The notes under the pieces are model-generated. The model was not told where the DNA came from and made no database searches. It saw only the letters and a program-made list of their open reading frames with translations. The position numbers and the translations under genes were made by a program. From Methanobacteriota archaeon (GTDB lineage Archaea > Hydrothermarchaeota > Hydrothermarchaeia > Hydrothermarchaeales > JACRDW01), in NCBI GenBank assembly GCA_043820925.1, contig JBDRDL010000057.1:1-52486 (forward strand): a DNA stretch of 52,486 bases, given 5' to 3'. Shown here one piece after another: positions 2,700 through 40,010 of this stretch; the stretch's first letter is position 1, and every line of letters starts with the position of its first letter.

Positions 2700-3726
2700 G
2701 CAGCACCTCTGAGATTTTATTTTTTAACTCATCAAAGCCGATATTGTACTTTGCAGACATTGCGACGCAATTTCCAATTTTTTTCTCTTCTATTGCATTA
2801 CCCAAATCGATTTTATTCAGGACATAAACGACTGGAATATGGTCTGCTCCAATATTTACAAGCGTGTTTTCGCATATCTCTTTTTTCCTGAGGAATTCCT
2901 CCAGAGGCTCGGAGGCATCCAAAACGAGAAGCACCAAATCAGAATTTTTTATTTCGCCGAGCGTCGCCGTGAATGCGTAGATAAGCTCGTGAGGCAGGTT
3001 CCTTATGAAGCCCAAGGTATCGTTTACAAAAACTTTCTCTCCGCCGAGCTTTATGCATGCAGTTTTTGTTCTCAAGGTCGTGAACAGCTCATCTCTCGCC
3101 TCTTCCTGCAGTTTTGCCAGTCCGTTGAGTATCGTCGTCTTTCCGACGTTAGTATATCCAGCGATGGAAACAACTTTTCCTTTTTCTTTTCTCCTCTTAC
3201 TCTGCAGCGCTACCCTTTCCTGAAATCTCTCCAGCTTTTTTTCTATTTTCTTTATCCTCTTGTGCAAAGCGCTTACAGTCGAATGAATTATATACTCTCC
3301 GCTGCTCCCGAAGCCGGGATGCTCTTCTCTGACTTTTCTGCCGAGGAAAATCTTTATGTACGGCAGCTTGCGCTTGAGCCTTGCAAGCTCGATCTGCAGC
3401 CTCGCTTCCCTGCTCTTCGCATGCTTTTCGAAAACATTGAGAATTAAGTCAAACTTGTCTATTACAGGAATTTTGAATTTTTCTTCGAGGCTCATAACCT
3501 GCCTTGAGTTCAGGTAATCCTCGAATATCGCCAGTTTAACTCTGTTCTCTCGAATGAAATTCGAAATCTCCTCAACCTTTCCTTCCCCTATGAGAAATCT
3601 AGCCCTGGGTCTCGAAAATTGAGCGAAGGTTTTCACTACTTCATACTCACCGGTGTGCGCTAGGAGCTTTATCTCCTCCTGCCTTGCCTCGTCAGGAGCT
3701 GTTACAACTACAATAGCCTTATCCAT
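2635..3726 (-). CDS. hflX: GTPase HflX
   Basis: P-loop GYTNVGKTT, G3 DTLGFI, G4 NKID and an HflX-type N-terminal domain. I prefer the ATG at 3726 (MDKAIVVV) over the TTG at 3732 used by the ORF track. The 3' end overlaps the RaSEA start by 65 nt. Confidence 0.85.
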   Translation of the reverse strand: MDKAIVVVTAPDEARQEEIKLLAHTGEYEVVKTFAQFSRPRARFLIGEGKVEEISNFIRENRVKLAIFEDYLNSRQVMSLEEKFKIPVIDKFDLILNVFEKHAKSREARLQIELARLKRKLPYIKIFLGRKVREEHPGFGSSGEYIIHSTVSALHKRIKKIEKKLERFQERVALQSKRRKEKGKVVSIAGYTNVGKTTILNGLAKLQEEARDELFTTLRTKTACIKLGGEKVFVNDTLGFIRNLPHELIYAFTATLGEIKNSDLVLLVLDASEPLEEFLRKKEICENTLVNIGADHIPVVYVLNKIDLGNAIEEKKIGNCVAMSAKYNIGFDELKNKISEVLHGQSSAERSCAKNKEGRTCEV

Positions 3727-3790
3727 TTTCAAACGTAGAAAATTTTGCCTTCAGCAAAATTTTCAGACGTTGAAAATTTCTACGTTGAAA
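3727..3790. repeat. AT-rich compound palindrome (copy X) abutting the hflX start codon
   Basis: The sequence TTTCAAACG-TA-GAAAATTTTGC-cttca-GCAAAATTTTC-AGA-CGTTGAAA is followed by a further CGTTGAAA. A second copy lies at 5564-5609. Confidence 0.6.
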
Positions 3791-4895: not shown

Positions 4896-5798
4896 CTACA
4901 GCGACACAGCAGTATATTTCTCCAAAAAATCCTGCTTATCTCTGTCAAGCAGCCTGAGAATTACCATAGATGCGGCGTCGCACGAGGCTTTTTCCTCCAC
5001 GAGCTCCCTCATGCTGTCGCTTCTTATCGCCTCTCTTATCTCCCTTACAACCTGCACCGCTGTATTGAAATTGTGCGTGAGAATATCATTAAACTCCAGC
5101 TCAAAAGGAGCTCTGGTTTTACAAATCTCACAGAAGCAGGGAAGTTCTTTAAGGCTTTGCAACTTCAAAAAACCTCTCGCTGTTATTAGTTTTTTTTCTC
5201 TCGCCTTTAAAACACAGTCCGCAGAATCGAACAAGTCAATACCCATGTATGCGAGCAAGTAAAACATGTGCGGCGGTGCGAAAGGAAGATATAAAGCAGA
5301 ATTCGGAGAAATCGTATCCCTGGCCCTTGTTACTATCTCAACGAGCAGCCTTGGATTTTTAACTAATTTTGCGCCGTTTGCAATTACCAGTAGAGGACGG
5401 TCTTCTAATTCCCGGGCGCACTTTTCTCTTAGGTCAATGTATTTTGACCCCTGAATAACCGCTCCCTGCCCAGGATAATTTTTGGCAAACTCTACTGTCC
5501 TCCTAACAGCTACTTCAGCTATGCTTCTCGGAACGTTCAGCCCAGCGTGCTCATCAGGCAGTATTTCAACGCCTGAAAATTTTGCAAAGCAAAATTTTCG
5601 ACGTTGAAAAAAACTTCCGCAGTCATAAACCACTGGCTTCTTCTTAGTTTTGAAATCGCAGGAAGCCAGATAAATGTCGTGGTTGAGATTTATGCCTTTG
5701 ACTAAATTCAGGAAAAAATTAGGAGTCCGAATTACGTCGTCATTGCAGCGCAGCTTGCCTAATCTAGCAGGTCCGCAGTGCTTGAGAATTTCAATCAT
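4896..5798 (-). CDS. arcS: ArcS N-terminal half (tRNA-guanine transglycosylase-like domain) as a separate ORF
   Basis: 300-aa ORF whose N-terminus [23 protein letters not shown] and overall layout resemble the TGT-like domain of ArcS/ArcTGT. It ends at a TAG 10 nt before the DUF5591/PUA ORF, which is in another frame. Confidence 0.6.
5564..5609. repeat. AT-rich compound palindrome (copy Y) inside the arcS N-half coding sequence
   Basis: The sequence is TTTCAACG-CCT-GAAAATTTTGC-aaa-GCAAAATTTTC-GA-CGTTGAAA. It shares 33 identical arm positions with copy X at 3727-3790 and encodes ..[15 protein letters not shown].. in frame. Confidence 0.6.
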
Positions 5799-6847: not shown

Positions 6848-7086
6848 AAAACCTCTTCGTACAGCTTATCGCCGTATAGTACCTCCTTCCTCACGTTTGC
6901 TCCTTTCTCCCTCGCAATATTGCCCCACTTTTTGGGAATGTCTTTTTTAGTAGATGTTATAATTAACTCGTCTTTTTCAAGTTTCATGATAACTTCCCCT
7001 CCTTCCTTTACACCTAAATTATCTCTAAAAATTTTTGGAATCACTATCTGTCCTTTCGTTCCAATCTTCGTTTTTGCTATAGTCAT
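6844..7086 (-). CDS. vapB: AbrB/SpoVT-type antitoxin VapB
   Basis: 80 aa. The N-terminal TKIGTKGQIVIPKIFRDNLGVKEGGEV is a swapped-hairpin AbrB/MazE fold signature. It is coupled to vapC. Confidence 0.8.
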   Translation of the reverse strand: MTIAKTKIGTKGQIVIPKIFRDNLGVKEGGEVIMKLEKDELIITSTKKDIPKKWGNIAREKGANVRKEVLYGDKLYEEVL

Positions 7087-7125
7087 ACCTAAAGTATGAA
7101 CAAATCGTACCGAGTGTATGAATTT

Positions 7126-8283
7126 TTAAAACTGGGCTATTCCAATCTCTTCATCAGTCAGATAGCACGCAGGGTCAGGTGCCCAAACATCGCCGTAAGC
7201 CGCTTCTGCACGGACTCTAAAATTGCCGTTGCAGATGTCGAGATACTTGCAAGCTCCACACCGCCCCTTCAGCAGATGTTTTCTGCTCTTTAGCCCAGCC
7301 ATAAGCGGGTCGGTTGTATCGCTCCATATCTCGCCGAACTTGCGCTCTCTAACGTTGCCGAATGAATAGTGCCTCCAGAACTGGTCTGCGTGAACATATC
7401 CGAAGTTGTCAACGTTTGCTATCGCAATGCCAGAGTTGTTGCCTCCGTTCCACCTCAGCAGTTGCAGCACTTCTTCTGCTCTCTCTGGCTGTTCCTCTTT
7501 TACTCTCAGATAGAGATAAACTCCATCCGTATGGTTGTCCACAGTTAGAATTTCGGTATCCACTCTTCTCCTGCAGAAGTCGAGAGTCTTATCGAAAATG
7601 AAATCCACAACCCTGCGAGTCTGCTTTCGTGTGAGGTCTTCCTTAATCATTTTACTCCCCCTGCCAGAATAGACGAGATGATAGAAGCACGCCCTCGGTA
7701 TTTTCTCCTTCTCAATTAAATCGAAAATCGCAGGAATGTCTCGATAGTTGTGCTTGCTGATTGTGAAGCGGAGCCCGACCCTTACATTTGCTTCCTTGCA
7801 GTTGCGAATTCCTTGGAGTGCTTCTTCAAAAGCTCCCTTCTTGCCCCGAAACTTATCGTTGGTCTTTCCAATGCCGTCGAGGCTTATTCCTACGTATGAA
7901 AAATTCGCTTCTTTTATTTTCTGCGCCGTCTCAGGCGTTATTAGAGTGCCGTTTGTAGAGATTACGGTTCTAAGTCCAAGCGAGACTGCGAATTTTCCGA
8001 GCCCGAATAAATCGCTCCTCATAAGAGGCTCGCCTCCAGAAAAAAGGAGAACAGGAACTTTGAACTCTGCTAAGTCTGAGATGAATTTTTTTGCCTCCTG
8101 CGTCGTTAGTTCTCCCTCAAACTCCCTATTCGCTGCATTTGCATAGCAGTGCATGCAGCGCAGATTGCAGCGCTGCGAGACGTTCCAGACCACTATCGGC
8201 TTTTTATCCTTCGAGAATCTACCGTATCTGAGCGCATCTCCGACGCTCGCAGTTCCGCACAGCAGCTTTGTGCATCCTATCAT
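7126..8283 (-). CDS. ahbC: NirJ-like radical SAM/SPASM enzyme of the alternative heme pathway, tentatively AhbC
   Basis: Motifs include CNLRCMHCY, FSGGEPLMR and a C-terminal SPASM Cys cluster (GRCGACKYLDICNG). It lies directly downstream of two AhbA/B-type genes. I prefer the ATG at 8283 (MIGCTKLL), which has GAGGAG 9 nt upstream, over the TTG at 8301. The AhbC versus AhbD assignment is tentative. Confidence 0.65.
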   Translation of the reverse strand: MIGCTKLLCGTASVGDALRYGRFSKDKKPIVVWNVSQRCNLRCMHCYANAANREFEGELTTQEAKKFISDLAEFKVPVLLFSGGEPLMRSDLFGLGKFAVSLGLRTVISTNGTLITPETAQKIKEANFSYVGISLDGIGKTNDKFRGKKGAFEEALQGIRNCKEANVRVGLRFTISKHNYRDIPAIFDLIEKEKIPRACFYHLVYSGRGSKMIKEDLTRKQTRRVVDFIFDKTLDFCRRRVDTEILTVDNHTDGVYLYLRVKEEQPERAEEVLQLLRWNGGNNSGIAIANVDNFGYVHADQFWRHYSFGNVRERKFGEIWSDTTDPLMAGLKSRKHLLKGRCGACKYLDICNGNFRVRAEAAYGDVWAPDPACYLTDEEIGIAQF

Positions 8284-8404
8284 TTTCAATCCACTCCTCA
8301 AAACTCACTTCGTTCGTTTTTCGTCGTGTCTTGACCCACTGGGTCTCGGCATGAGCAATCATTCGCTCTCGCTTATATGAAAAGCTTGATTGTGAAGTGC
8401 TGAG
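8284..8404 (-). promoter_or_regulatory. structured leader/intercistronic RNA element, copy A
   Basis: The whole 123-nt spacer between the ahbA/B-like stop and the ahbC start is homologous to 30620-30760. It is identical over GGGTCAAGACACGACGA and GAGGAGTGGATTGAAA, with shared CTCAGCACTT and CAAGCTT blocks further 5'. Confidence 0.6.
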
Positions 8405-8406
8405 AA

Positions 8407-8883
8407 TCACCCGTAGCGTTTGTAGATTTTTTTAAACTCCTTCGAGCTGTAGAGCAGCTCGTAGTCTTTTATGCCCACGGCGCAAGATAGTTTTTTTGCT
8501 ATTTTTTCGACGCTTTTTTTATCATAGCCGTGAATCATCGTGTAAACGTTGTACTCCCATTTTCCGGGTATAATCGCCCTTTCATAGCAGTGCGTTACTT
8601 CTCTGAAAGAGGCGAGCCTTTTTCCGACTTCTTCCACCCGTTCCTTCGGAACCTTCCATATCACGAGAGGATTTGCAAGAATGCCGAGCTTCCTGTGCCT
8701 TATTGAGGCGCTGAAGCGGCGGACAATTCCCTCTCGCATCATCCTCTTTATTCTCTTAATTACTTCTTCCTCGCTTATCTCAAGTTTTTCCGCAACTTCT
8801 AAAAAAGGTCTGGAAACTAAAGGAACATTATCCTGCAGGATTTTCAGTATTTCTTTGTCTGTATTATCCAGCATGCGCATCAC
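8407..8883 (-). CDS. siroheme decarboxylase subunit (AhbA/AhbB, Lrp/AsnC-like NirD/NirL family)
   Basis: 158 aa with DKEILKILQDNVPLVSRPF, VTHCYER, EYNVYTMIHG and ELLYSSKEFKK blocks typical of AhbA/B. Confidence 0.7.
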   Translation of the reverse strand: MMRMLDNTDKEILKILQDNVPLVSRPFLEVAEKLEISEEEVIKRIKRMMREGIVRRFSASIRHRKLGILANPLVIWKVPKERVEEVGKRLASFREVTHCYERAIIPGKWEYNVYTMIHGYDKKSVEKIAKKLSCAVGIKDYELLYSSKEFKKIYKRYG

Positions 8884-12890: not shown

Positions 12891-12955
12891 AGCTTTGCTC
12901 CTAAAGTAGCTTTTGCTCCTAAAGTCGGCGAAAATTAAGAGTTTAGGAGCAAAGT
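12891..12955. repeat. left copy of a ~65-bp direct repeat flanking an AT-rich insertion
   Basis: The sequence is AGCTTTGCTCCTAAAGT-AGCTTTTGCTCCTAAAGTCG-(18 nt)-TTTAGGAGCAAAG. It contains two direct copies and one inverted copy of the TTGCTCCTAAAGT core, and the same architecture recurs at 14125-14190. Confidence 0.7.
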
Positions 12956-13047
12956 TAATCAAACCGAAAGGTATATATTTAAAGAGTATACTATTATATT
13001 ATGAGATTGGTCTCCACGGAGGTTAATCTCCTTCATTAAATATTGTT

Positions 13048-14076
13048 TTATAATTTTTGTTGCCCAGCAGTTCCCATTAATTTATAAATCTCTTCAATGT
13101 TTAAAACCTTAATCTCTCTATATGGATTTAGCATTTCAATAAACTTCATTTTCTTATATCCCCCTTCATCTAAACAAATTATATAGTCGTTTTTATTCAG
13201 AGATGTATGTTGATTCACTATATCTTCAAATGATACCGCTCCTCCATTCAATTCTGCGAAGCTTAAAAGCGATTGAAAAAAATCGGTATCGCTAACTATT
13301 TTGTTATCAACACTTTCTGATTTATGTATAATAAAAAGCGGATGAGGAAAATGTAGTTCGACTTTTAAAGAGTGCGAAAATTCAGCATTTAAATATTCAA
13401 TTTCATCATCTCCGATGAATTCTGAATCGATATAGGCAGGCGTATTATCTTTAAGTTGATGATAAATCTCCTTTGCATCGATATGATGAACTGTATGTTT
13501 AATGTATCCACAAATAAGGTCACATAAAGAAATACAAGGATGTGTTTGATCTCCGTGGGGGACAATATTAACTACATCGGCTTTTTTCCCAATAAATTTC
13601 CATGCTTTAGTTATTTTCCCTTGTATTCCGTCTAATATAACATGTTTTGCATAATTAGGATAGCGGGATTTTAAATAATATCTCCAAATTGGAATAATTG
13701 GATAATATTGTTGCAGTATGTTATTAATAAAATCCAACCCAGCCATTTCTTCTTTCCAAGTAGGTACAGGATTCATTAATATGGTATTTGTTACATTTAT
13801 CTTTTTTATATTCTCAATTTTCAACAATTCCTCAGTCAGTTCTATATGTGCGTCTTGTATATCATAAGATGGGATTTTTCTGAAAATATCCTCGGTTTTT
13901 AAAACTCGCCTTAGCAAACTAATATTGTATTTTTTATAAAACCTTTCTATGATATTAAAATACTTATTTCTAAACTCATTATATCCACCAATCTCTACAG
14001 CAACTCCCGTAAGATTGGAAAAGTTACCACGTCTAATGATGGCAGAGTCGGAGGCAACGAGATGTTCATTAAACAT
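13048..14076 (-). CDS. hypothetical protein, orphan, on an AT-rich island
   Basis: 342-aa uninterrupted ORF in a region visibly more AT-rich than its flanks. I see only a weak DUF3800-like pattern (N-terminal VASDSA, later HGDQTHPCISLCDLICGYI), which I cannot verify. Confidence 0.6.
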   Translation of the reverse strand: MFNEHLVASDSAIIRRGNFSNLTGVAVEIGGYNEFRNKYFNIIERFYKKYNISLLRRVLKTEDIFRKIPSYDIQDAHIELTEELLKIENIKKINVTNTILMNPVPTWKEEMAGLDFINNILQQYYPIIPIWRYYLKSRYPNYAKHVILDGIQGKITKAWKFIGKKADVVNIVPHGDQTHPCISLCDLICGYIKHTVHHIDAKEIYHQLKDNTPAYIDSEFIGDDEIEYLNAEFSHSLKVELHFPHPLFIIHKSESVDNKIVSDTDFFQSLLSFAELNGGAVSFEDIVNQHTSLNKNDYIICLDEGGYKKMKFIEMLNPYREIKVLNIEEIYKLMGTAGQQKL

Positions 14077-14124: not shown

Positions 14125-14190
14125 AGCTTTGCTACTAAAGTCGGGTTTCTGCTCCTAAAGTCGCTTGAATTTCTTACTTTGGGAGCAAAG
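14125..14190. repeat. right copy of the ~65-bp direct repeat flanking the AT-rich insertion
   Basis: The sequence is AGCTTTGCTACTAAAGT-CGGGTTTCTGCTCCTAAAGTCG-(14 nt)-ACTTTGGGAGCAAAG, with the same order and orientation of cores as 12891-12955. Confidence 0.7.
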
Positions 14191-16050: not shown

Positions 16051-17303
16051 TTTTTCAACTCGTTCGGGTCAGTTATCCTTCCAGTTGCCGCACTTGCAGC
16101 CACAACCGCAGGATTCGCAAGATAAACTTCGCTGTCCTTGTGCCCCATGCGCCCAACGAAGTTTCGATTCGTCGAGGAGATGCAGCGCTCTCCGCTTGCG
16201 AGAACTCCCATGTAGCCCCCTAAACAAGCGCCGCAGGTTGGTCCGCTGACATAGGCATTCGCCTGCGCAAATATTTTTATCAGACCCTCTTTCATCGCCT
16301 GCTCGAAAACTGCTTTGCTCGCTGGTACTACAATCATTCTTACGTTTCTGTGAACTTTTCTGCCCTTCAGTATTTTAGCGGCTATTCGAAGGTCTTCAAT
16401 TCTCCCATTCGTGCAGGAGCCGAGGTATGCCTGGTCTATTACAATGTTGCCCAGTTCTCCTGCTGGTGCAATGTTGCTGGGCAGAAAAGGCTTTGCAACT
16501 GTGCATGGAATATCTCTTGTGTCGTAGGTAAAAGTCTCTGCGTACTCTGCGTTTTCATCGGCATATACCGGCCTGTATTTCCCTCTCGCTCTTCCCTTCA
16601 GATAATCGAAGACTTTTTCGTCAGGGGGTATTATGCCTGCCTTTGCGCCTGCCTCGACTGCCATATTTGCTATCGAAATTCTGTCAGACAAAGGTAAGAC
16701 CCTAATAGTACTGCCGTAAAACTCCATCACCTTATATAGAGCTCCGTCCACGCCTATGCTGCCTATTATGTGCAGGATAATGTCTTTTCCCATCACATAC
16801 TTGCCGGGCTTTCCATTTACGACGAATCTCTGGGTTTGGGGTACCTTGAACCAGAGCTTGCCGAGAGCCATCGCAGAAGCTGCCTCTGTAGAGCCCACGC
16901 CTGTTGAAAAGGCGCCTAAGGCGCCATAGGAGCAGGTGTGCGAGTCTGCGCCTATTATAAGCCTTCCAGGAGCAACAAAACCCTGCTCAATCATTACCTG
17001 ATGACAAACTCCTGCCCGGCCCACTTCAAAATAATTCGGCAGGTTGTATTTTTTTGCAAACTCGCGCATCGCCTTCGCCTGCTCTGCGCTTGCTATGTCC
17101 TTGTTCGGAACGTAGTGGTCCGGTATGAGCACTACTTTTTCTCTAATCGGCTGTGCATCGAATTTCTCAAAAACCTCGAAGGCGGGCAGACCTGTGACAT
17201 CGTTAACCATGACATAGTCTATCTCTGCCTCTACGATTTTGCCCGACTCGACTTTTTTCATTCCAGACTTCACTGCCAGAATTTTCTCAGCTATCGTCGC
17301 CAT
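16047..17303 (-). CDS. leuC: 3-isopropylmalate dehydratase / homoaconitase large subunit
   Basis: 418 aa of the aconitase family with GADSHT, YLGSCTNGR and SSTNRNFVGRMG motifs. Confidence 0.8.
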   Translation of the reverse strand: MATIAEKILAVKSGMKKVESGKIVEAEIDYVMVNDVTGLPAFEVFEKFDAQPIREKVVLIPDHYVPNKDIASAEQAKAMREFAKKYNLPNYFEVGRAGVCHQVMIEQGFVAPGRLIIGADSHTCSYGALGAFSTGVGSTEAASAMALGKLWFKVPQTQRFVVNGKPGKYVMGKDIILHIIGSIGVDGALYKVMEFYGSTIRVLPLSDRISIANMAVEAGAKAGIIPPDEKVFDYLKGRARGKYRPVYADENAEYAETFTYDTRDIPCTVAKPFLPSNIAPAGELGNIVIDQAYLGSCTNGRIEDLRIAAKILKGRKVHRNVRMIVVPASKAVFEQAMKEGLIKIFAQANAYVSGPTCGACLGGYMGVLASGERCISSTNRNFVGRMGHKDSEVYLANPAVVAASAATGRITDPNELKK

Positions 17304-17347
17304 GTCCTCAAACTATTTATACTAATCCTGTTAAAAATGTTTGTGCT

Positions 17348-17782
17348 ATGGATGATTTGAAGTTTCAAAAAGTCAAAATCAGCGGAATATTCATGGCTAA
17401 TGCTCCAGAAGGAGTAACGCCTATAGTACTTTTGGAGAGCGATGAGAAGAGAATACTGCCAATTTACATCGGCGCAGCTGAAGCTTTCTCCATACAAACT
17501 GCGCTGGAGAAACTTTCGTATCCCAGGCCGCTAACGCACGACCTGCTTATAACTATTCTTGAAGAGCTGAAGTCAAAAATAGAAAAAGTCGTAATAGACG
17601 ACCTCAACGACGGAATATTTTTTGCGAGAGTCATCGTTAAGAAAAACGGAGACGAATACGAATTCGATGCCAGACCGAGCGACAGCATAGCGCTTGCGAT
17701 TAGATGCGAAGCGCCTGTTTACGTTTCGAAAAAAGTGATGGAAAACGCATCTGTGGATAAAAAATCTTATAAATTAAAATAG
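17348..17782 (+). CDS. bifunctional nuclease family protein (DUF151)
   Basis: The pattern PIVLLESDEKRILPIYIGAAEAFSI..RPLTHDL..ARPSDSIALA is characteristic of DUF151/BFN. Confidence 0.75.
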   Translation: MDDLKFQKVKISGIFMANAPEGVTPIVLLESDEKRILPIYIGAAEAFSIQTALEKLSYPRPLTHDLLITILEELKSKIEKVVIDDLNDGIFFARVIVKKNGDEYEFDARPSDSIALAIRCEAPVYVSKKVMENASVDKKSYKLK

Positions 17783-18093: not shown

Positions 18094-18101
18094 TATATAA
18101 A
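18094..18101 (+). promoter_or_regulatory. TATA-box candidate for the aroA leader transcript
   Basis: TATATAAA lies about 210 nt upstream of the aroA ATG, which would give a long 5' UTR starting near 18125-18135. Confidence 0.4.
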
Positions 18102-18134
18102 TCAGCCCTTTTGAAAAAAGCGCTGGCGGAAAAG

Positions 18135-18309
18135 GTTGTGAGCGATTCGAGAGCTTTGCTCTCGAGCTCTGTGGGTTCTCCAAGGGCAAGCCCTTGGAAG
18201 CGAACAATACCCTTGCGTAAGCAAGACCGAATGGTTTTGCGCCTACCTAACGGTATTGGGTCAAGACACGAGGAGAAATGAAGGGTCTCGGCATGAAAAA
18301 GGTGACAAA
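18135..18309 (+). promoter_or_regulatory. long hairpin-rich 5' leader of aroA, partly related to leader copies A and B
   Basis: There are three perfect hairpins: TCGAGAGC-ttt-GCTCTCGA, CCAAGGGC-aa-GCCCTTGG and CTTGC-GTAA-GCAAG. It also contains the 15-nt block TGGGTCAAGACACGA shared with 8326-8340 and 30658-30672 (opposite strand). Confidence 0.55.
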
Positions 18310-20224: not shown

Positions 20225-21029
20225 AGTTCCATCTTTTTATTTCCTCCACTTTAACAGCTGCCTTTGACCCAGGTTTTCTCCTGAATCTAAATAAGTTCCT
20301 CAGCCTGGTAAAAAATCCAACAATGTATTCTTCTCCAACTAAGTGAGCAGCAAGTTTTTTGAATTCTATTGCAGCAGGAGAATTGGGGCTGTTCAGCACC
20401 ACCGGATTTCCTGAAGCTATACCCTCTCTGACCCCGGCGTCTTCTGGCACTACCGCAATGACCCTTGCATCGAGGAAAGGTTCAATCTCGGAAACTGAGA
20501 GCTCGTATCTCTCGTTCCTAACTCTATTCAGCACGACTCCTCCAACAAGTACCTTATTTCTTTTTGCCACCTCTATAGCCTTGAGGGCGTCTGTAATTGC
20601 CGGAAGTTCTGGATTCGTCACAACTAAAACCTCATCACAAAGTTCCAGTATCGGAATGATTTCATTCCCCAAGCCGGAGCAGGAATCTATCAAAATTAAT
20701 TCATAACTCTCTAACTCATTCAAGAACTCCTTTAACTCCTCTAAATCCGGATATGCTTTACTCGGTGCGAGAGGAGCTAGCAGCAGTTTAACGCCGCTTA
20801 CATGCGCCTGCACTGCCTCCAAAATTGGAACTTTTTTTTTCAATACATCCTCAAGAGAAACGGAAGGAGAATAGATTCCAAAATGCAGTCCTAAATCCGA
20901 AGTAATAGTGCTGCCGTCTATAAGAACTACTCTCTTTTTAAACTCAGAAGCCAAGGCAGCACCTATATTTGCAACAGCAGTTGTTTTCCCTACGCCGCCT
21001 TTTCCTGAAATAACCGCTATAGTCTTCAT
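20217..21029 (-). CDS. MinD/ParA-family P-loop ATPase
   Basis: It has the deviant Walker A SGKGGVGKTT and the MinD-like layout. It overlaps both neighbours by 4-8 nt. Confidence 0.8.
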   Translation of the reverse strand: MKTIAVISGKGGVGKTTAVANIGAALASEFKKRVVLIDGSTITSDLGLHFGIYSPSVSLEDVLKKKVPILEAVQAHVSGVKLLLAPLAPSKAYPDLEELKEFLNELESYELILIDSCSGLGNEIIPILELCDEVLVVTNPELPAITDALKAIEVAKRNKVLVGGVVLNRVRNERYELSVSEIEPFLDARVIAVVPEDAGVREGIASGNPVVLNSPNSPAAIEFKKLAAHLVGEEYIVGFFTRLRNLFRFRRKPGSKAAVKVEEIKRWNYD

Positions 21030-22522
21030 TCAATTCTCCCTTTCGCCAGCCTTACTCCATGCTTTATTTGTTTTAGTGCCCTTATCTTTTTTCCTCTGTA
21101 GACTCTGCTAACATATATCCTTCTCAGAATCAATGCTACGAACATAAAAAAAATAACATAGCTAATGTGGAACTTACGCAGTATTCTCTCCTCCCAACGT
21201 ACTTCTGTAGGAGCGGGCTTAACTTTCGCTGTCTCTGGAGTAACTATAAGCGAGGGGGCGATGCTCTCTACGTGATAAATCGCTCCGCGCAAGTCTTCGT
21301 ATATCACATCTAATCTCGGAAGCTGATAGGTTGCGCTCTCTGGCTTATATAAATTTTTGGCCCTAACTTTATATGAAATTACTATAGATTCTCCTGGCTT
21401 GAGCTCCCCACCCCACGCCAGTTTTCCCTCTATCAGCTCTAAGCCGCCGGGAATTGAGTCTCTGAAGCGTACGTTACTCGCCCTGCCCTCTCCAAGATTT
21501 TGTATAGCTATCTCAACTGTAGTGCTTTCGCCCTCAGCTATAACTGAATTTGCGATAAATTTCGATACGCTCAATCTTGGTAATTTGGATACGTCCTCTG
21601 CTGGCTGTATTCTTTTGAAGAAATAAATGTTGTTGTCATAAGAACCGGCTACAGCATAGTTTCCGTCAATAGATGTCGCAACCGAAGATACATAGTAAGC
21701 AGTCCTATATTTCCCAGATAAATTACCGGAGTAATTTAGGAAGTAGACGTTGTTATCCCTCGAACCTGCAACCACGTATTCTCCGCCAGAGGACAGTGCA
21801 ACATCCCATATTTCATCGCCGGCCTTGTACTTCCACAGCAGCTTTCCTGTTGAGTCGAAAAAGTAGACGTGGTTATCGTAGCTGCCTGCCACTATGTATT
21901 TACCGTCTGGAGAGATTGAAGTGCTGAGTCCAACGTCAAAGACTTTATACTTCCAGTGCAAAACGCCTTCTGAGTCGAAGAGATAAATGTGGTTATCATA
22001 GCTGCCTGCTGCTGTGTAGCGGCCGTCTGAGGAGATGGAAGTACTTAGCACAACGTCGTCTGTCCTGTACTTCCATAACAATTTGCCGGTTGAATCGAAT
22101 AAATACACGTGGTTATCATAGCTGCCTGCTGCTGTGTATTTACCATCTGAGGAGATAGCTACTGTCCAGACAGTGTCGCCAGTTGCGTACTTCCACAGCA
22201 GCTTTCCTGTTGAGTCGAAAAAGTAGATGTTGCGGTCTTTTGAGCCTGCTGCTGTGTATTTACCATCTGAGGAGATAGCTACTGTCCAGACAGTGTCGCC
22301 AGTTGCGTACTTCCACAGCAGCTTTCCTGTTGAGTCGAAAAAGTAGACGTGGTTATCGTAGCTGCCTGCTGCTGTGTATTTACCGTCTGACGACATGCCG
22401 ACCGTCCAGACTCCAGAGGCGGTAGAATAACTCCAAATCATTACCTGCTCTTCTGTATAAGCTACTGGTGTAATGGAAAGCGATGCAAGTAATATTAAAC
22501 CTATTAACTTTTTTTTATTCAT
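21026..22522 (-). CDS. secreted seven-bladed PQQ-like beta-propeller protein with CARDB/DUF11-like domain and C-terminal membrane anchor
   Basis: Sec-type signal MNKKKLIGLILLASLS. There are seven 40-aa repeats (SSDGKYTAAGSYDNHVYFFDSTGKLLWKY). These are followed by an Ig-like block (GESTTVEIAIQNLGEGRASNV) and a hydrophobic tail with basic residues. Confidence 0.7.
   Translation of the reverse strand: MNKKKLIGLILLASLSITPVAYTEEQVMIWSYSTASGVWTVGMSSDGKYTAAGSYDNHVYFFDSTGKLLWKYATGDTVWTVAISSDGKYTAAGSKDRNIYFFDSTGKLLWKYATGDTVWTVAISSDGKYTAAGSYDNHVYLFDSTGKLLWKYRTDDVVLSTSISSDGRYTAAGSYDNHIYLFDSEGVLHWKYKVFDVGLSTSISPDGKYIVAGSYDNHVYFFDSTGKLLWKYKAGDEIWDVALSSGGEYVVAGSRDNNVYFLNYSGNLSGKYRTAYYVSSVATSIDGNYAVAGSYDNNIYFFKRIQPAEDVSKLPRLSVSKFIANSVIAEGESTTVEIAIQNLGEGRASNVRFRDSIPGGLELIEGKLAWGGELKPGESIVISYKVRAKNLYKPESATYQLPRLDVIYEDLRGAIYHVESIAPSLIVTPETAKVKPAPTEVRWEERILRKFHISYVIFFMFVALILRRIYVSRVYRGKKIRALKQIKHGVRLAKGRIE
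21604..22411 (-). repeat. seven tandem ~120-bp coding repeats (propeller blades)
   Basis: Units 22141-22260 and 22261-22380 are nearly identical at the DNA level. The other units are progressively more diverged. Confidence 0.8.
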
Positions 22523-23596: not shown

Positions 23597-23968
23597 CTAT
23601 TCTGCTGGAGCTTCCTCAAGCGCTCGCTTTACAGCAGCCTCTACCTCGTCTATCCTGAAAGGCTTGGAAATGTAGTCGTCTGCGCCCTTCTTCATCGCCT
23701 CTACGGCGCTTTTAGTAGAGGCGAAGGCTGTTATCATTATAACTCTTATCTGCGGCTTGAGCCTCTTGATTTCGAGCAGCAGCTCCATGCCGCTCATTCC
23801 GGGCATCTTGATGTCTGCCAACACAACGCCGTAATCTTCCTTCTTTATTTTCTCTAAGGCTTCCGTTCCAGAGCCAACATGGGAAACTTCGTACCCCGCT
23901 TCCATCAGCACCTCAGACAGATCTATCCTTATTTGTTTCTCGTCGTCCACGACCAAGATTTTCTTCAT
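23597..23968 (-). CDS. stand-alone response regulator receiver (CheY-like)
   Basis: 123 aa with the DD acidic pocket (VVDDE), the phospho-acceptor context VLADIKMPGMSG, and T and K (ITAF..KP) positions. There is no output domain. Confidence 0.9.
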   Translation of the reverse strand: MKKILVVDDEKQIRIDLSEVLMEAGYEVSHVGSGTEALEKIKKEDYGVVLADIKMPGMSGMELLLEIKRLKPQIRVIMITAFASTKSAVEAMKKGADDYISKPFRIDEVEAAVKRALEEAPAE

Positions 23969-30619: not shown

Positions 30620-30760
30620 TTCAATCCACTCCTCGAAACTCGTTGCACTCGTTTCTCGTCGTGTCTTGACCCATGACGCCACTTGCTCACGCAAGTGGGT
30701 GTCGGCACAAGTAGGCATTCGTTCTGCTGATATGGGAAGCTTGCCTACGAAGTGCTGACA
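30620..30760 (-). promoter_or_regulatory. structured leader RNA element, copy B (5' UTR of the Lrp gene)
   Basis: It is homologous to 8284-8404 over its whole length and carries an extra hairpin CCACTTGC-GTGA-GCAAGTGG. It ends in GAGGAGTGGATTGAA-ATG. Confidence 0.6.
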
Positions 30761-30914
30761 AGTGCTGAGTTAAGGGTTCTAACTGCTGCAAAGGTATCGT
30801 TTTTCTATGGTTAAAAATTTGGTTTAGTATCTTATATATTTTTCGGTATACTGGTTAATAAAATCTTTTAGAAAACTTTATATATGCAAGAATATATTAT
30901 CAAATTAACTAATT

Positions 30915-30966
30915 ATTCCAAATTTGTTTGGAAATCAAAAGAAGAACTCTTCCAAAAAATTTGGAA
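30915..30966 (+). promoter_or_regulatory. two copies of the palindrome TTCCAAA-N3/4-TTTGGAA(AT) in the nrdD leader
   Basis: The copies lie at 30915-30935 and 30950-30966, about 35 nt apart centre to centre. They sit between a TATA-like TTTATATAT (30877-30885) and the GGAGGG Shine-Dalgarno/ATG at 30981. Confidence 0.5.
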
Positions 30967-30980
30967 ATAGGAGGGTAAAA

Positions 30981-33194
30981 ATGACCGAAGAAAATCTTGA
31001 ACGTCGAAGCACGCTTTCCAAGATTCGAAAGAGAGACGGCAGGATAGCCGAGTTCGACCAGAAGAAAATTACGAATGCAATATACAGGGCATTGCTTGCA
31101 ACGCAGGATGTGGAGCACCAGAAATCGCAGGCTACCTTAACTGGTGTGCCCTACCCAAAAGAGGTTTCGCTCAGCAAACTCGCAAAAGAATTGTCTGGCA
31201 AGGTTGTAGCTGTACTGGAGTACCAGTTCGACAGCAAGAGCGTTCCGACTGTTGAAGAAGTTCAGGATGTCGTTGAAAGAGTTCTAATAAAGAACGATTT
31301 GGCTGAAACCGCAAAAGCTTACATCCTTTACAGACACCAGCGCAAGAAAATCAGAGAAATAAAATCCACTTTCGTTGATGTTCAAAATACAATGAGCGAG
31401 TACTTGAACCAGACTGACTGGAGAGTCAGAGAAAACAGCAACGAGGATTACTCCTTCTCAGGATTGATGCTGCACGTCTCTGGAAAAGTCATTGCAAATT
31501 ATGTGCTGAACGAGATTTACACGCCTGCTATCGCAGAGGCTCACAAAAAAGGATACATACATCTACATGATTTGGGGCACGGCGTCGTGGGCTACTGCGC
31601 AGGCTGGTCTCTGAAAAACTTGCTTGTTAGAGGCTTCGGGAACGTTCCAAATAAAGTGGATACAAAGCCTGCGAAGCATCTCGACGTGGTAATCTCGCAG
31701 ATGGTGAACTACATGGGCTGCTTGCAAATGGAGTTTGCAGGTGCGCAGGCTTTCTCTTCAGTAGATACCCTGCTTGCACCCTTCGTAAAGGCTGACAGTC
31801 TAACTTACAGGCAGGTGAAGCAGAACTTACAGCGCCTGGTCTTTTCTCTGAACATTCCTTCGAGGTGGGGCTGCCAGATGCCCTTCACAAATTTAACTTT
31901 CGACTGGACAGTGCCCGAGGACATGAAGAACGAGAGAGCAATCGTAGGCGGCATGGAGCAAAATTTTACTTACGGCGACTGCCAGGCTGAGATGGACATG
32001 ATAAACAAGGCATTCCTGGAAATTATGAGAGACGGCGATGCAAATGGCAGGATATTTACCTTTCCGATACCCACTTACAATCTGACCAAGGATTTCGACT
32101 GGGACAGCGAAAATGCAAACCTGCTTTTCGAAGTTACCGCAAAGTACGGCACGCCCTACTTCCAGAACTACATAGGAAGCGAGTTAGACCCGAAGAGCAT
32201 CAGGGCGATGTGCTGCAGGTTAAACTTAAATCTGAACGAGCTCGTAAGGAGACCAGGTCACGTTTTTGCAGCAGGAGACAGCACGGGCAGCATAGGCGTG
32301 GTAACCATCAACATGAACAGGCTCGGCTATGAATCCAAAACGAAAGAAGAGTTCTTCGAAAGATTACAGCGCTACATGATTCTGGCAGAGGATTCTCTTG
32401 AGATAAAAAGGAAGGTCATAGAGAAGAACCTGCAGAACGGCTTAATGCCCTACACGAAGTCTTACCTGGGAACTTTCAGAAATCACTTCTCCACGATTGG
32501 TCTCTGCGGAATGAACGAGGCATGCCTGAATTTCTTGGGAAAGAGTATTGCAGCGCAGGAAGGAAAAGCATTTGTAATTGAAACGCTGCTTTTCATGAGA
32601 GACCTCATAAGAGAATTCCAGAGAGAAACTGGCAACCTGTACAATCTAGAAGCAACGCCCGCAGAATCTACTGCGTACAGATTCGGAAAGTTAGACAAGG
32701 AACTCTACCCTGATATAATAACTGCGGGCGGGGATACCCCCTACCTGACAAACTCGACACACCTGCCCGTCAATTATACTGACGATGCAATAGAAGCAAT
32801 AGAACACCAGAACGATGTACAGCCCCTTTATACCGGAGGAACAATCTTCCATACCTTCATGGGTGAAAGAATGAGCGGCGCAGAGAGCTGTAGGACTTTG
32901 GTTAAGAGAATAGCGCACAACACCAAGATACCATACTTTACGATAACCCCTACTTTTAGCGTGTGCAGAACTCACGGCTACATAAAAGGCGAACAGCTGC
33001 GCTGCCCTGAATGCGGCTCTGAAACAGAGATTTACTCCAGAATTGTAGGATACTTCAGACCTGTGAAAAACTGGAACAGGGGCAAAAAGGAAGAGTTCAG
33101 AGAAAGGTTGGAATACGAAGAATCCAAGACTCTGAGCCACAGCCTCGAGAGGGAAATTATTGCGGAGCACAAGTTAGTGAGCGTTGCTACTTAA
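30981..33194 (+). CDS. nrdD: anaerobic ribonucleoside-triphosphate reductase (class III)
   Basis: It has an ATP-cone (KIRKRDGRIAEFDQKKI), the thiyl-Cys finger loop SIRAMCCRLNL, a C-terminal Zn ribbon (CRTHG..CPECG) and the glycyl radical motif SRIVGYFRP. The start at 30981 has a GGAGGG SD. Confidence 0.9.
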   Translation: MTEENLERRSTLSKIRKRDGRIAEFDQKKITNAIYRALLATQDVEHQKSQATLTGVPYPKEVSLSKLAKELSGKVVAVLEYQFDSKSVPTVEEVQDVVERVLIKNDLAETAKAYILYRHQRKKIREIKSTFVDVQNTMSEYLNQTDWRVRENSNEDYSFSGLMLHVSGKVIANYVLNEIYTPAIAEAHKKGYIHLHDLGHGVVGYCAGWSLKNLLVRGFGNVPNKVDTKPAKHLDVVISQMVNYMGCLQMEFAGAQAFSSVDTLLAPFVKADSLTYRQVKQNLQRLVFSLNIPSRWGCQMPFTNLTFDWTVPEDMKNERAIVGGMEQNFTYGDCQAEMDMINKAFLEIMRDGDANGRIFTFPIPTYNLTKDFDWDSENANLLFEVTAKYGTPYFQNYIGSELDPKSIRAMCCRLNLNLNELVRRPGHVFAAGDSTGSIGVVTINMNRLGYESKTKEEFFERLQRYMILAEDSLEIKRKVIEKNLQNGLMPYTKSYLGTFRNHFSTIGLCGMNEACLNFLGKSIAAQEGKAFVIETLLFMRDLIREFQRETGNLYNLEATPAESTAYRFGKLDKELYPDIITAGGDTPYLTNSTHLPVNYTDDAIEAIEHQNDVQPLYTGGTIFHTFMGERMSGAESCRTLVKRIAHNTKIPYFTITPTFSVCRTHGYIKGEQLRCPECGSETEIYSRIVGYFRPVKNWNRGKKEEFRERLEYEESKTLSHSLEREIIAEHKLVSVAT

Positions 33195-33891
33195 TATGCT
33201 AATAAAAGGCTTAGTTAAGACTACATTAATAGACTATCCCGGAAAAGTTGCATGTACTGTTTTTCTCGCCAAGTGCAACTTCCGCTGCCCCTACTGCCAG
33301 AATCCTGATTTAGTCGTTGGCTACGGGGAGCTTCCTACGATTTCTGAAGAGGAAATCTTCGGGCATTTAAAATCCAGGAAAAAGTGGCTCGACGGAGTAT
33401 GCGTTTCTGGAGGCGAGCCGACGCTGAACAGCGACCTGCCTGAATTCTTGCGGAAGATAAAGAGCATGGGCTTTTTAATCAAGCTCGACACAAACGGAAC
33501 AAATCCAGAAATGCTGAAAAAGCTGCTGGATGAGAAACTGATAGACTATGCTGCGATGGACATTAAAGCTCCGCTGGAGAGATATGAAGAAGTAGTAAGA
33601 GTAAGAGTAGACCTGGAGAAAATCAAGCAAAGTGTGGAAATTATTCGAAACAGCGGTGTTGACTACGAATTTCGCACAACCGTTGTTCCTGGCTTGTTGA
33701 ACAGCGGGGATATTGAAAAAATTTGCAGCTGGCTGCGAGGCTCCAAGCGCTACTACCTGCAGCAGTTCAGGTCAGATATAACTCTGGACGCTTCGTTCAG
33801 AAAAGTTGCGCCGTACAAACCCGAGGAAATGCTTAAGTGCTACGAAGTAGCAAAGAATAATTTTGAGGTATGCGAGGTGAGGGGGATATGA
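33184..33891 (+). CDS. nrdG: anaerobic RNR activating radical SAM protein
   Basis: It has the CNFRCPYCQN cluster motif and GGEPTL. It overlaps the nrdD 3' end by 11 nt. Confidence 0.85.
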   Translation: MLLNMLIKGLVKTTLIDYPGKVACTVFLAKCNFRCPYCQNPDLVVGYGELPTISEEEIFGHLKSRKKWLDGVCVSGGEPTLNSDLPEFLRKIKSMGFLIKLDTNGTNPEMLKKLLDEKLIDYAAMDIKAPLERYEEVVRVRVDLEKIKQSVEIIRNSGVDYEFRTTVVPGLLNSGDIEKICSWLRGSKRYYLQQFRSDITLDASFRKVAPYKPEEMLKCYEVAKNNFEVCEVRGI

Positions 33892-33934
33892 CACAGTTGT
33901 TATATTCAATTCCGCCGCCTTGTATAGTAAAAAT

Positions 33935-34426
33935 ATGATTATCCAACTAATTTCAATTTTTATCGGTCTTGTAATCTTGGGATTCTTCTTAAATTGGCTT
34001 GACTATAGATTTATGAAAAACATATATTTAAACTCTAAGAGATTTGACCTAAATATTTGTTGTGGTAATACGGCGTGTGAGGGAATTAATGCTGACATTG
34101 TCGAAAGAGATGTCCCACGTTTTGTGTTAATTAGAAATATATACAAACTACCATTTAAGAATAAAAAATTTAAAAATACAATATGTTCTCACGCAATGGA
34201 ACATGTCGAAGATCCCGTAAAATTCTTTAGAGAACTTAAAAGAGTAAGTAAGAATGTGACTGTTTTGGTGCCTCCTCTATGGGATTTTGGTTGTATGATC
34301 AATATTTTGGAACATAGACGACAATTTTTAACATTTGCATCCAAACATAAAAATAAGTTACCAAAATTTTTTAACTTACCCTTTAGTAAAACTATTCAAG
34401 ATAGATTTGGACAGAAAATCTTATAA
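33935..34426 (+). CDS. class I SAM-dependent methyltransferase-like protein with N-terminal TM helix
   Basis: The gene is AT-rich. The translation MIIQLISIFIGLVILGFFL is followed by a Methyltransf_11-like core (DLNICCG, LPFKNKKFKNTICSHAMEHVEDP, RVSKNVTVLVP). The track ORF starts at a TTG at 33920. Confidence 0.55.
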   Translation: MIIQLISIFIGLVILGFFLNWLDYRFMKNIYLNSKRFDLNICCGNTACEGINADIVERDVPRFVLIRNIYKLPFKNKKFKNTICSHAMEHVEDPVKFFRELKRVSKNVTVLVPPLWDFGCMINILEHRRQFLTFASKHKNKLPKFFNLPFSKTIQDRFGQKIL

Positions 34427-34505
34427 AATAATTAATTCATCAACAATAAGCTAAGAGGACCAATAGCCCAAAAATAATTATACTTTATTAACCGAGTAAA
34501 TAAGT

Positions 34506-36590: not shown

Positions 36591-36594
36591 TTTT

Positions 36595-37122
36595 ATGAGC
36601 GAGAAGCGGGGCAATATTCATCTCTACACCGGCGAGGGCGAGGGGAAAACTATTACTGCTTTTGGTCTTGCACTGCGTGCTCTGGGTCATGGGCATAAAG
36701 TCGTTATAATTCAATTCATGAAGGGTCGCAAGGATATTGGTGAGTACAGGGTAAAGAAGAGGCTTTCTCCAGAATACGAGATTCACCAGTTCGGCAGGAA
36801 AGAATTCATAGATTTAAAAAATCCTGAGCCGGTGGATTTTGAATTGGCGAGGAAAGGTCTGGAATTTGCGAAAAAAGCTCTCAAGAAAAAAACAGACCTT
36901 TTAATTCTGGACGAGATAAACCTCGCAGTCGCTTTCAAATTAATAAAACTTGAAGAAGTTTTGAAATTCTTGAATAATGTTCCAAAAAATACTACTGTCG
37001 TTCTAACAGGGCGCAGAGCTCCCAGAGAGCTGATAGAACGCGCGGATTTGGTTACTGAAATGAAAGAAATAAAACATCCTATGAAGAAGGGGGTGCCTGC
37101 GAGGAAGGGAATAGAATATTAA
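36595..37122 (+). CDS. cobO: cob(I)yrinic acid a,c-diamide / cob(I)alamin adenosyltransferase (CobA/CobO/BtuR family)
   Basis: From the ATG at 36595 the translation is IHLYTGEGEGKTITAFGLALRALGHGHKVVIIQFMKG..LDEIN. It starts 5 nt after the nrdJ stop. Confidence 0.85.
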   Translation: MSEKRGNIHLYTGEGEGKTITAFGLALRALGHGHKVVIIQFMKGRKDIGEYRVKKRLSPEYEIHQFGRKEFIDLKNPEPVDFELARKGLEFAKKALKKKTDLLILDEINLAVAFKLIKLEEVLKFLNNVPKNTTVVLTGRRAPRELIERADLVTEMKEIKHPMKKGVPARKGIEY

Positions 37123-37177
37123 AATTATGGTTAAGTACCCTAACTATTACAATGAAATCTAACTTGTGATTTAGAAC

Positions 37178-37255
37178 TTGGTTAGTTATTTTTATATTTT
37201 TTAATATTTAAGTTAACAAATTCTTTCCGAAAGATTTTTAAATACTTAAATATAA
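37178..37255 (+). promoter_or_regulatory. promoter module of the nrdD-like gene resembling the nrdD/lrp intergenic module (30819-30885)
   Basis: TTGGTT-AGTTATTTTTATATTTTTT..AGTTAACAAATTCTTTCCGAAAGA aligns with TTGGTTTAGTATCTTATATATTTTT..GGTTAATAAAATCTTTTAGAAAAC. Two blocks give 14/18 and 17/24 matches by eye with similar spacing. It includes the palindrome TCTTTCCGAAAGA. Confidence 0.35.
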
Positions 37256-37310
37256 TAGGATGTTAATAAATTATCTAAAATATGTTAGAAAATTGAAAAG
37301 GCTGGAGAAT

Positions 37311-39646: not shown

Positions 39647-39730
39647 GGGAGAATTTCCACCTGCCCATTTCCACCTCCAACTCGGCTCTTTCTTTCCCCT
39701 AACCCTCCTCTTTTTTTGAGCTTTGCTCAC

Positions 39731-39932: not shown

Positions 39933-40010
39933 GTACAACCTCATGCTCTCCCTGAGTCTCGTCAGGCTCTCGTTTTCCTCCGGTTTTCTGACAACAAAAT
40001 AGATATAACT
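39930..40010 (-). pseudogene. methyltransferase 3'-end remnant, copy 1
   Basis: It translates to ..YIYFVVRKPEENESLTRLRESMRLY*, homologous to the tails at 42068-42123, 42829-42960 and 43566-43703. No methyltransferase body is attached. Confidence 0.5.

Follow-up and report, generated by a model that had tools for sequence, protein, structure and literature searches.

The window analysed here, a stretch of 52,486 nt from a Methanobacteriota archaeon of the Hydrothermarchaeota lineage (contig JBDRDL010000057.1 of GenBank assembly GCA_043820925.1), carries three copies of a hairpin-rich element, named A, B, and C, which occupy the spacer between ahbB and ahbC, the lrp leader, and the aroA leader, respectively (Table 1; all coordinates refer to the whole stretch in forward-strand numbering). 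AhbA, AhbB, and AhbD lie above the NCBIfam equivalog cut-offs, the radical SAM gene following copy A is NirJ1/AhbC-like and falls slightly below them, and the genes following copies B and C encode a member of the Lrp/AsnC family and EPSP synthase; the identities of ahbB, ahbC, and lrp proposed in a previous sequence-only reading of this DNA therefore hold. That reading had described the ahbB-ahbC spacer as an RNA-like element that recurs upstream of lrp, and copies A and B indeed align from end to end with a column identity of 81% and contain all of the shared blocks that it had quoted. Their sole large difference is a 21-nt insertion in copy B, itself a perfect hairpin with a GNRA loop (CCACTTGC-GTGA-GCAAGTGG). 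Copy C, which was absent from the earlier description, is more divergent and represents the third match to the 17-mer GGGTCAAGACACGACGA, which with up to three mismatches occurs three times in the window compared with 0.05 expected occurrences. Even when run unfiltered, a covariance model of the 3' hairpin (R1) matches the window only at copies A, B, and C, and it scores copy A with 86.6 bits over positions 8281-8338.

Table 1. Positions of the three element copies, their parts, and one empty target site in the window
Feature	Position	Strand	Remarks
Copy A, whole element	8284..8406	-	Spans the entire spacer from the ahbB stop (8407-8409) to the ahbC ATG (8283-8281)
Copy A, B1, 5' terminal block TCAGCACTTC	8394..8403	-	In long copies elsewhere, pairs with the inverse copy CGAAGTGCTGA just 5' of the Shine-Dalgarno block
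Copy A, P1 stem CAATCA/TGATTG around AGCTTTTCATATAAGCGAGAGCGAA	8356..8392	-	Read by eye
Copy A, B2 TGCCGAGACCC and small hairpin GACCC-AGT-GGGTC	8333..8351	-	In long copies, B2 pairs instead with the downstream inverse copy GGGTCTCGGCA
Copy A, B3, invariant block GGGTCAAGACACGACGA	8321..8337	-	5' arm of the Shine-Dalgarno hairpin
Copy A, apical stem AAAAC/GTTTT with 11-nt loop GAACGAAGTGA	8300..8320	-	Loop retains a 6-nt remnant of inverse B1
Copy A, B4 GAGGAGTGGATTGAAA	8284..8299	-	3' terminal block containing the Shine-Dalgarno sequence; 3' arm of the hairpin; adjoins the ahbC ATG
Copy B, lrp leader element	30620..30770	-	lrp ATG at 30619-30617
Copy B, B1	30748-30758	-	Partial duplicate at 30759-30768
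Copy B, B2	30697-30707	-	
Copy B, B3	30656-30672	-	
Copy B, B4	30620-30634	-	
Copy B, nested GNRA hairpin, core	30682-30695	-	
Copy C, aroA leader element	18100..18309	+	Divergent mosaic; aroA ATG at 18310
Copy C, alternative 5' module GCCCTTTTGAAAAAAGC	18105-18121	+	
Copy C, hairpin CTTGC-GTAA-GCAAG	18212-18225	+	One of several hairpins
Copy C, B3	18258-18274	+	
Copy C, inverse B2	18283-18293	+	
Empty target site, overlap of histidine-kinase stop and response-regulator start (AAAAAATGAAG)	23962..23968	-	

The element consists of recurrent blocks, B1 to B4, with exchangeable palindromes between them. B1, with the consensus TCAGCACTTCG, forms the 5' end, B3 has the core GGGTCAAGACACGA(CGA), and B4, with the consensus (G)GAGTGGATTGAA(A)(A), is followed immediately by the ATG. 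The motif (G)GAGTGGATTGAAA or a variant of it ends every copy directly at the start codon except for the aroA copy of the window, which is devoid of B4 and has a Shine-Dalgarno (SD) sequence of its own, AGGTGA, at 18300-18305. Copies A and B represent a short form; long copies such as L031 (L-numbers denote the loci fetched from relatives) show the order B1-B2-B3-B2'-B1'-B4, where the prime marks an inverse copy. The full 11-nt inverse B1 is present at the loop position in L031 and L026, a variant with one mismatch in L032-L14, and only a 6-nt remnant in A and B. The complementarity of the loop to the 5' block (GAAGUG/CACUUC in A; GAGUGC/GCACUU with one G-U pair in B), from which a possible pseudoknot had been proposed, was correctly observed and is explained as the remnant of a terminal inverted repeat, because the full inverse B1 occupies this position in relatives. 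The 3' copy B1' is followed by about 19 nt of B4 and is therefore not itself terminal. The arms of the P1 stem covary among the copies, e.g., UAGGCA/UGCCUA in B, CAGGCA/UGCCUG in L007, and CAGCA/UGCUG in L033-cmk, as judged by eye.

The palindromic modules between the blocks are interchangeable and comprise CTTGC-GTGA-GCAAG, GGAAGATGGC..GCCATCTTCC, GCATGAGCG..CGCTCATGC, and a GTAG-headed hairpin, ACGTAGAAAATTTTGC..GCAAAATTTTCAGACGT; an alternative 5' module, (A)TGAGCCCTTTTGAAAAAAGCCC, is found in some copies. At least six families of hairpin modules recur in varied combinations and nestings, as is typical of the mosaics of repetitive extragenic palindromes (REPs) called bacterial interspersed mosaic elements (BIMEs). 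The GTAG head is confined to one module family, and B3 and B4 are free of a GTAG/CGTC tag. Members of the GTAG-headed family (ACGTAGAAAATTTTGC..GCAAAATTTTC(A)GACGT) also stand alone in two intergenic spacers of the window, at 3726-3775 and 5564-5609, and the same module is nested in the lrp-leader element of L038 and in the cmk element of L032; the family resembles the GTAG-tagged REP units and would be their equivalent in archaea. The block AAGCTTTTCATATAAGC is TATA-like yet also forms a small hairpin, and copy A is operon-internal. Clusters of the same hairpin modules without B3 and B4 lie between convergent genes at the 3' end of an arcS-like (DUF5591/PUA) gene in L025 (~6990-7140) and L026 (~12940-13040), where they seemingly lengthen the reading frame of this gene.

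In the short form, B3 and B4 pair in the order UCAA/UUGA, GA·GA, CAC/GUG, GA·GA, C/G, and GA·GA; a 5-bp apical stem and its 11-nt loop cap this helix, inside which the SD purines lie. The three tandem G·A mismatch steps are increased to five in the L033-L14 variant when read by eye; a K-turn reading of this helix is ruled out by the absence of a 3-nt bulge beside the G·A pairs. Among ten short copies, 89.7% of the alignment cells are paired and 6 of the 13 pairs have changed on both sides, a value reached by none of 500 shuffles; the 20 model-aligned copies show double changes at 9 of the 13 pairs, in an alignment that is biased toward the model. The compensatory change previously noted between the apical stems of A (AAAAC/GUUUU) and B (GAAAC/GUUUC), both predicted with the 11-nt loop as described, is correct and belongs to a series that includes GAAGC/GCUUC and GGAGC/GCUCC, and the single C-G pair is inverted to G-C in one copy. 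Covariation thus demonstrates the base pairing of B3 with B4, and G·A pairing within the helix is predicted. Folding z-scores are -2.2 for A, -2.9 for B, and -5.3 for L031, whose predicted long-copy fold is closed by a 13-bp B1:B1' helix and leaves B4 single-stranded. SD accessibility calculated per copy from partition functions is heterogeneous (0.09-0.74) and inflated, since the G·A positions are scored as unpaired.

The distribution of the element was followed in genome fragments of relatives, which were obtained via homologues of AhbC, S4e, and Lrp and amount to 170 kb from the clade and 45 kb from outgroups. Model R1 detects 20 copies of the B3-B4 hairpin in the clade and nothing significant in the 45 kb from the more distant relatives. 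All 20 copies have the strand sense of the downstream gene and end at its ATG, at ten unrelated junctions, namely, ahbC, lrp, aroA, rpl2, rpl14, rps4e, rps14, cmk, and the genes of EF-1beta and a response regulator. For a sense orientation at all ten sites, a two-sided binomial test gives a probability of ~0.002, and B4 or a variant stands immediately before the ATG at nine of the ten junctions, the tenth being that of copy C. Random orientation and missing covariation, which had been named as the mark of a plain repeat of the REP type or of a MITE (miniature transposable element with inverted repeats), are thus the opposite of what was found. The element is absent from L029, with 75% AhbC identity, and from L035-L037, with 66% S4e identity, and the junctions in ribosomal-protein operons of the outgroups measure 0-2 nt throughout. 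A strict pattern, CGAATG..GGGTCAAGACACGA, detected only two further loci in 185,579 species-representative genomes, before rps14 and the EF-1beta gene of one groundwater metagenome-assembled genome; its 16 matches in JGI metagenomes are all due to chance, none being accompanied by any other block, and a looser pattern might find more. Two patterns had no match in viral contigs. The earlier reading could not place the element in a riboswitch class; Rfam 15 gave no match at gathering thresholds for the whole window, and when copies A and C were scanned by E-value, a single snoRNA match at chance level (E=8.4) was all that emerged. The element family is restricted to one genus-level clade of Hydrothermarchaeota-like archaea, a placement that for the window, itself a complete contig, rests on its closest AhbC homologues.

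Within this clade, the exchange, nesting, and loss of internal hairpin modules greatly outpace the divergence of the flanks. The ahbB-ahbC spacer measures 123, 249, 115, 235, 188, and 189 nt in six clade members (the window, L031, L024, L025, L026, and L028), with a different module content in each, and only 12 nt in the relative with 75% AhbC identity. Between the window and L031, identity reaches 98.1% over 3.2 kb of one flank and 98.6% over 1.6 kb of the other, yet the interior of the element has been replaced (95 versus 221 nt). The lrp leaders of the window and L038 share ~165-190 nt of upstream promoter DNA with a handful of differences; of the element itself, B3 and B4 are retained and the rest is different. 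L025 contains at 1399-1422 a collapsed copy in which B3 is fused directly to B4 (GGGTCAAGA-GTGGATTGAAAATG), followed by a second complete element, which is consistent with a deletion across the hairpin arms and tandem stacking of elements.

Junctions were found both empty and filled. Between the genes of L24 and S4e, L034 has a bare ATGA overlap and L033 a 113-nt element, with an identical S4e protein in both, and L004 and L032 carry at this site an element different from that of L033; the sequence AAAATGAGC(C) is duplicated at both ends of the L24-S4e element, corresponding to a duplication of 9-10 nt. The S19-L22 junction is empty in L032 and filled in L033, where a 14-nt duplication covers the stop codon, the SD, and the ATG. 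The kinase-regulator junction, empty in the window, harbors in L038 an 84-nt element with a duplicated AAATGA (6-7 nt). The targets in these empty/filled pairs are A-rich stop/start overlaps such as AAAATGA, and since the junction is duplicated on both sides, both genes remain intact. At the end of the S17 gene the element has recoded the C terminus of the protein (L004 3008-3060, L032 3600-3644, and L033 6975-7019): outgroup proteins end with ..EKVNK* or ..EKMEA*, those of the clade with ..EKFSALRNAFAPKE* or ..ERVKPRLSEERSSSEGVD*, read through B1 or B3-B4.

Overall, we consider it likely, with a probability of about 0.75, that A, B, and C are non-coding, palindrome-rich, mosaic insertion repeats of a MITE/REP/BIME-like kind, which are lineage specific and donate a ribosome-binding site as Neisseria REP2 does. 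Of the two interpretations offered by the sequence-only reading, the dispersed, leader-donating repeat is borne out by the mosaic modules and the invariant SD hairpin at the start codon, and the new cis-regulatory RNA finds no support, given the unrelated genes, the replaced interior, and the empty and filled sites. The elements are not plain REPs or MITEs, as their orientation and position are strict, their G·A mismatches are conserved rather than repaired, and B1' is not terminal. They probably spread through recombination of copies, with the constant blocks B1, B3, and B4 as anchors, or through REP-like units that insert into each other; the variable duplication and the AAATGA microhomology are as compatible with recombination or template switching as with transposition. 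The element is presumably co-transcribed with its neighbor genes, and B4, i.e., (G)GAGUGGAUUGAAA-AUG, would supply the SD region of the downstream gene. The 3' end of archaeal 16S rRNA reads ..GAUCACCUCC, and AGGAGUGGAU or its variant AGGUGGAU sits where AGGUGAU sits in native sites such as those of aroA and L22. At rps4e, at least, B4 very probably is a functional ribosome-binding site and must serve this essential gene, because its original SD (GAGAGGT) has come to lie before the left of the two ATG copies. Since the SD lies inside the B3:B4 helix, short copies such as A and B would have a masked ribosome-binding site; the pairs formed in long copies would instead be B1:B1' and B2:B2', with the SD predicted to be accessible.

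A further aspect concerns translation across the operon-internal copies. Starting from the duplicated start codon or from the ATGA/GTGA overlap, an open reading frame (ORF) of 21-113 codons runs through the element and stops 2-27 nt before the real ATG in 9 of 15 copies, compared with 1.2 such bridging cases predicted by dinucleotide shuffles (P about 7e-8). The significance is lowered to a binomial P of 0.003 because the other frames and the antisense strand are also poor in stops: 10 of the 15 copies (copy A counted) are open in the junction frame, compared with 29% for the other five frames, in copies that are not independent. The pattern is suggestive of ribosomes that initiate at the left copy of the start codon, cross the element in a peptide-agnostic ORF, open the hairpin on their way, and are released shortly before the true start. 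Such a relay would maintain translational coupling and avoid an untranslated gap, could help the repeats to be tolerated at overlapping stop/start junctions, and might also avoid the kind of polarity for which FttA/aCPSF1, an archaeal termination factor, is held responsible. A "translationally transparent" selfish element with the full relay of duplicated start, peptide-agnostic ORF, and masked built-in SD, which colonizes overlapping stop/start junctions of essential archaeal operons, restores coupling and polarity protection, and may link genes through a protein-binding operator formed by the tandem-G·A helix, is nevertheless a tentative proposal that we regard as less probable than its negation.

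Several observations speak against the interpretation as mobile, leader-donating repeats or against its extension to a ribosome relay. The copies analysed stem from few related metagenome-assembled genomes and are not independent. The sense strand folds more stably than the antisense strand in 13 of 21 copies, with a mean difference of -1.7 kcal/mol, i.e., without asymmetry; overall stability therefore cannot separate RNA-level from DNA-level structure, and most hairpins could equally be DNA-level palindromes. The length of the duplication is not fixed (6-14 nt) and partly coincides with the element's own GAAAATG end, so that a classical target-site duplication is unproven. A Pfam search with 35 of the 62 candidate ORFs of the window found neither a transposase nor a RAYT-like gene. 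The bridging ORF is weakened by the scarcity of stops on both strands (22 of 63 open frames in sense, 17 of 63 in antisense orientation), and in copy A it overruns the ahbC ATG rather than ending before it.

One alternative view is that the elements are purely DNA-level selfish REP or MITE palindromes, whose sense orientation, SD block, and open frame would merely mark the survivors of purifying selection in compact operons. It largely overlaps with the repeat interpretation favored above and differs only on whether the RNA hairpin matters. The equal folding of both strands, the scarcity of stops on either of them, the near-perfect palindromy and rapid turnover of the modules, and the occurrence of the GTAG-headed hairpin both alone in spacers and nested in elements agree with it. 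We consider it quite unlikely all the same, as three GA/GA mismatches have been kept where repair would have given Watson-Crick pairs and the helix also contains G-U pairs, an asymmetry favoring the sense RNA, and as B4 must act as a ribosome-binding site at least at rps4e. The near-invariance of B3, B4, and all three GA/GA steps amid replaced surroundings could instead indicate that the helix is the operator of a trans-acting factor, i.e., of a global RNA-binding protein, such as one of the L7Ae family or a ribosomal protein, or of a small RNA, uniting ribosomal-protein operons, EF-1beta, ahbC, lrp, and aroA in one translational regulon comparable to the transcriptional REP2/CREN regulon of Neisseria. 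The covariation of the helix, the strict orientation and position, and the several translation genes among the targets would suit such a regulon, but the missing 3-nt bulge next to the G·A pairs precludes a canonical K-turn, the targets are a mixed set of genes, B4 is missing or the arms vary in copy C, L028, and L038-RR, and an occupancy that varies among near-identical strains is awkward for an essential regulon. We consider an operator of this kind unlikely.

A ligand-sensing riboswitch or a thermosensor with the SD-sequestering hairpin as expression platform appears very unlikely. It would have to be a new one, given the lack of an Rfam match, and could draw on the SD within a covarying helix and on alternative pairings, the CAC of B3 pairing with the GUG of B4 in short copies or with a GUG upstream of B2 in the L031 fold, where B1:B1' frees the SD. 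A conserved aptamer-like core is missing, however; the region 5' of B3 is wholly different in L024, L038, and L033-S4e, the downstream genes are unrelated, the element is absent in relatives with protein identities of 75% (AhbC) and 66% (S4e), and presence and absence are polymorphic between strains with identical S4e. A riboswitch is thus not supported in view of ten unrelated genes, an interior swapped despite 98% identical flanks, empty and filled near-identical strains, and distant relatives devoid of the element. The apparent peptide (..AETHWVKTRR..SFEEWIE) might finally reflect a small protein or leader peptide conserved at the amino acid level, since copy A can be read in one sense frame without a stop, as can copy B from an ATG at 30718 in frame with lrp, and several differences among A, B, L004, and L007 fall on third codon positions. 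Its frame differs relative to the downstream genes, as had been noticed before (out of frame with ahbC, in frame with lrp), 17 of 21 copies have stops in all three sense frames, and B3 is read as WVKTRR in some copies and as GQDTT in others. The 18 nt encoding WVKTRR (GGGTCAAGACACGA) show no synonymous change in nearly all copies, 14 of 16 census matches being identical, and the longest ORF through an element, of 125 amino acids in L004, has no homologue among 5.8 billion proteins. On these grounds (no homologue, stops in 17 of 21 copies, and B3 in two frames) the protein-coding reading was rejected; its probability is close to zero.

Dispersed repeats with comparable properties have previously been reported for bacteria, e.g., REP2/CREN of Neisseria and IR-A/IR-B of Borrelia, which are ~120-150 bp long and have no terminal inverted repeats (Morelle et al. 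2003; PMC3184786). They share with the archaeal family internal inverted repeats or stem-loops, a location directly upstream of ORFs, a ribosome-binding site adjoining the ATG, and many unrelated target genes (PMC3184786), and are its closest analogues by mechanism, not by homology, as REP2 and IR-A are bacterial and have no sequence in common with it. REP2 moreover has a promoter and sits at operon heads, whereas the archaeal family is also operon-internal at stop/start overlaps, has rapidly exchanged mosaic modules, and would mask its SD in a G·A-rich helix. By architecture, BIME and BOX mosaics are the closest analogues (PMC2817692, PMC10969869). The GTAG/CGTC-tagged, RAYT-mobilized REPs and BIMEs of Proteobacteria are likewise short imperfect palindromes that form mosaic clusters in transcribed intergenic DNA (PMC2817692, PMC3733652), are lineage specific and strain variable, and contain G-U pairs suggesting RNA hairpins, and one archaeal module is GTAG headed. 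In contrast, REPs lie mostly downstream of genes in both orientations (head-to-head or tail-to-tail dimers) without a ribosome-binding site; the B3-B4 copies do not show this arrangement, and only the clusters without B3 and B4 in L025 and L026 lie at a gene 3' end. The survey of GTAG/CGTC-tagged REPs covers bacterial phyla only (PMC3733652).

Pneumococcal BOX elements resemble the archaeal family in their modular A-B(n)-C architecture with a variable module number, and BOX, RUP, SPRITE, and Correia elements in that they are found inserted in each other, are co-transcribed, adopt stable RNA structures, and influence how neighboring genes are expressed (PMC10969869). Correia and RUP differ in being classical MITEs, which have terminal inverted repeats and duplicate a target site of fixed length, and none of the four has been reported base for base against start codons or in ribosomal-protein operons. 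Palindromic repeats tolerated in translated or operon-internal positions are known from the RPE of Rickettsia and the Geobacter MITE Chunjie (PMC10969869, PMC3184786). RPE is read in frame as part of host proteins, to which the recoded S17 C terminus and the junction ORF through many copies would be the archaeal counterparts, but its location is intragenic, not intergenic; the terminal inverted repeats of Chunjie measure 21 bp and its direct repeats 9 bp, and neither has been described as a source of a downstream ribosome-binding site. A review of MITEs lists only few archaeal families, and a literature search for repeats of Hydrothermarchaeota found nothing.

The window and L033 contain further repeats and features. 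Divergent from lrp, the window contains at 30924-39281 three ribonucleotide-reductase-type genes, two NrdD-like and one class II-like, clustered with genes of an NrdG-like radical SAM protein and a corrinoid adenosyltransferase. Motifs of the sequence AGCTTTGCTCCTAAAGT, which may be transcription-factor binding sites, occur in direct and inverted orientation at 12891-12954 and 14125-14190 in the AT-rich spacers on either side of a Pfam-less gene, 13048-14076(-). The region 39700-43640, with 33-40% GC and duplicated segments (39731-39800 = 43083-43152 and 41241-41384 = 43319-43462), contains small ORFs, two of which match PIN and DUF4258 and the rest no Pfam family, and has the appearance of clustered, paralogous cassettes of a toxin-antitoxin-like type; these two domains were the only Pfam matches in the low-GC stretch at 39-46 kb. 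Tandem repeats with a period of ~120 nt (72-96% identical) at 21825-22411 belong to a WD40/beta-propeller gene, 21026-22522(-), and are protein repeats, not non-coding. In L033, a tRNA-Ser(TGA) gene at 17254-17341 is followed ~90 nt downstream, at ~17400-17430, by a second copy of its 3' end (GAATCCTCTCCCCGGCG), which resembles the att-site remnant of an integrated element.

The current study exemplifies that a structured, covarying, and recurrent leader may be a mobile repeat instead of a riboswitch, and the comparison of orthologous sites in close relatives was decisive here. Intergenic mosaic repeats have been much studied in bacteria and are barely described in archaea. The operons invaded by the present family, those of the S10/spc ribosomal-protein cluster, are the most compact and conserved that are known, and the family enters them precisely at their ATGA stop/start overlaps. 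It recodes the C terminus of a ribosomal protein and replaces native ribosome-binding sites. Its empty and filled sites are usable as strain markers for uncultured lineages. The elements represent a natural experiment on archaeal translational coupling, reinitiation, and polarity, and a compact, portable intercistronic initiation cassette.

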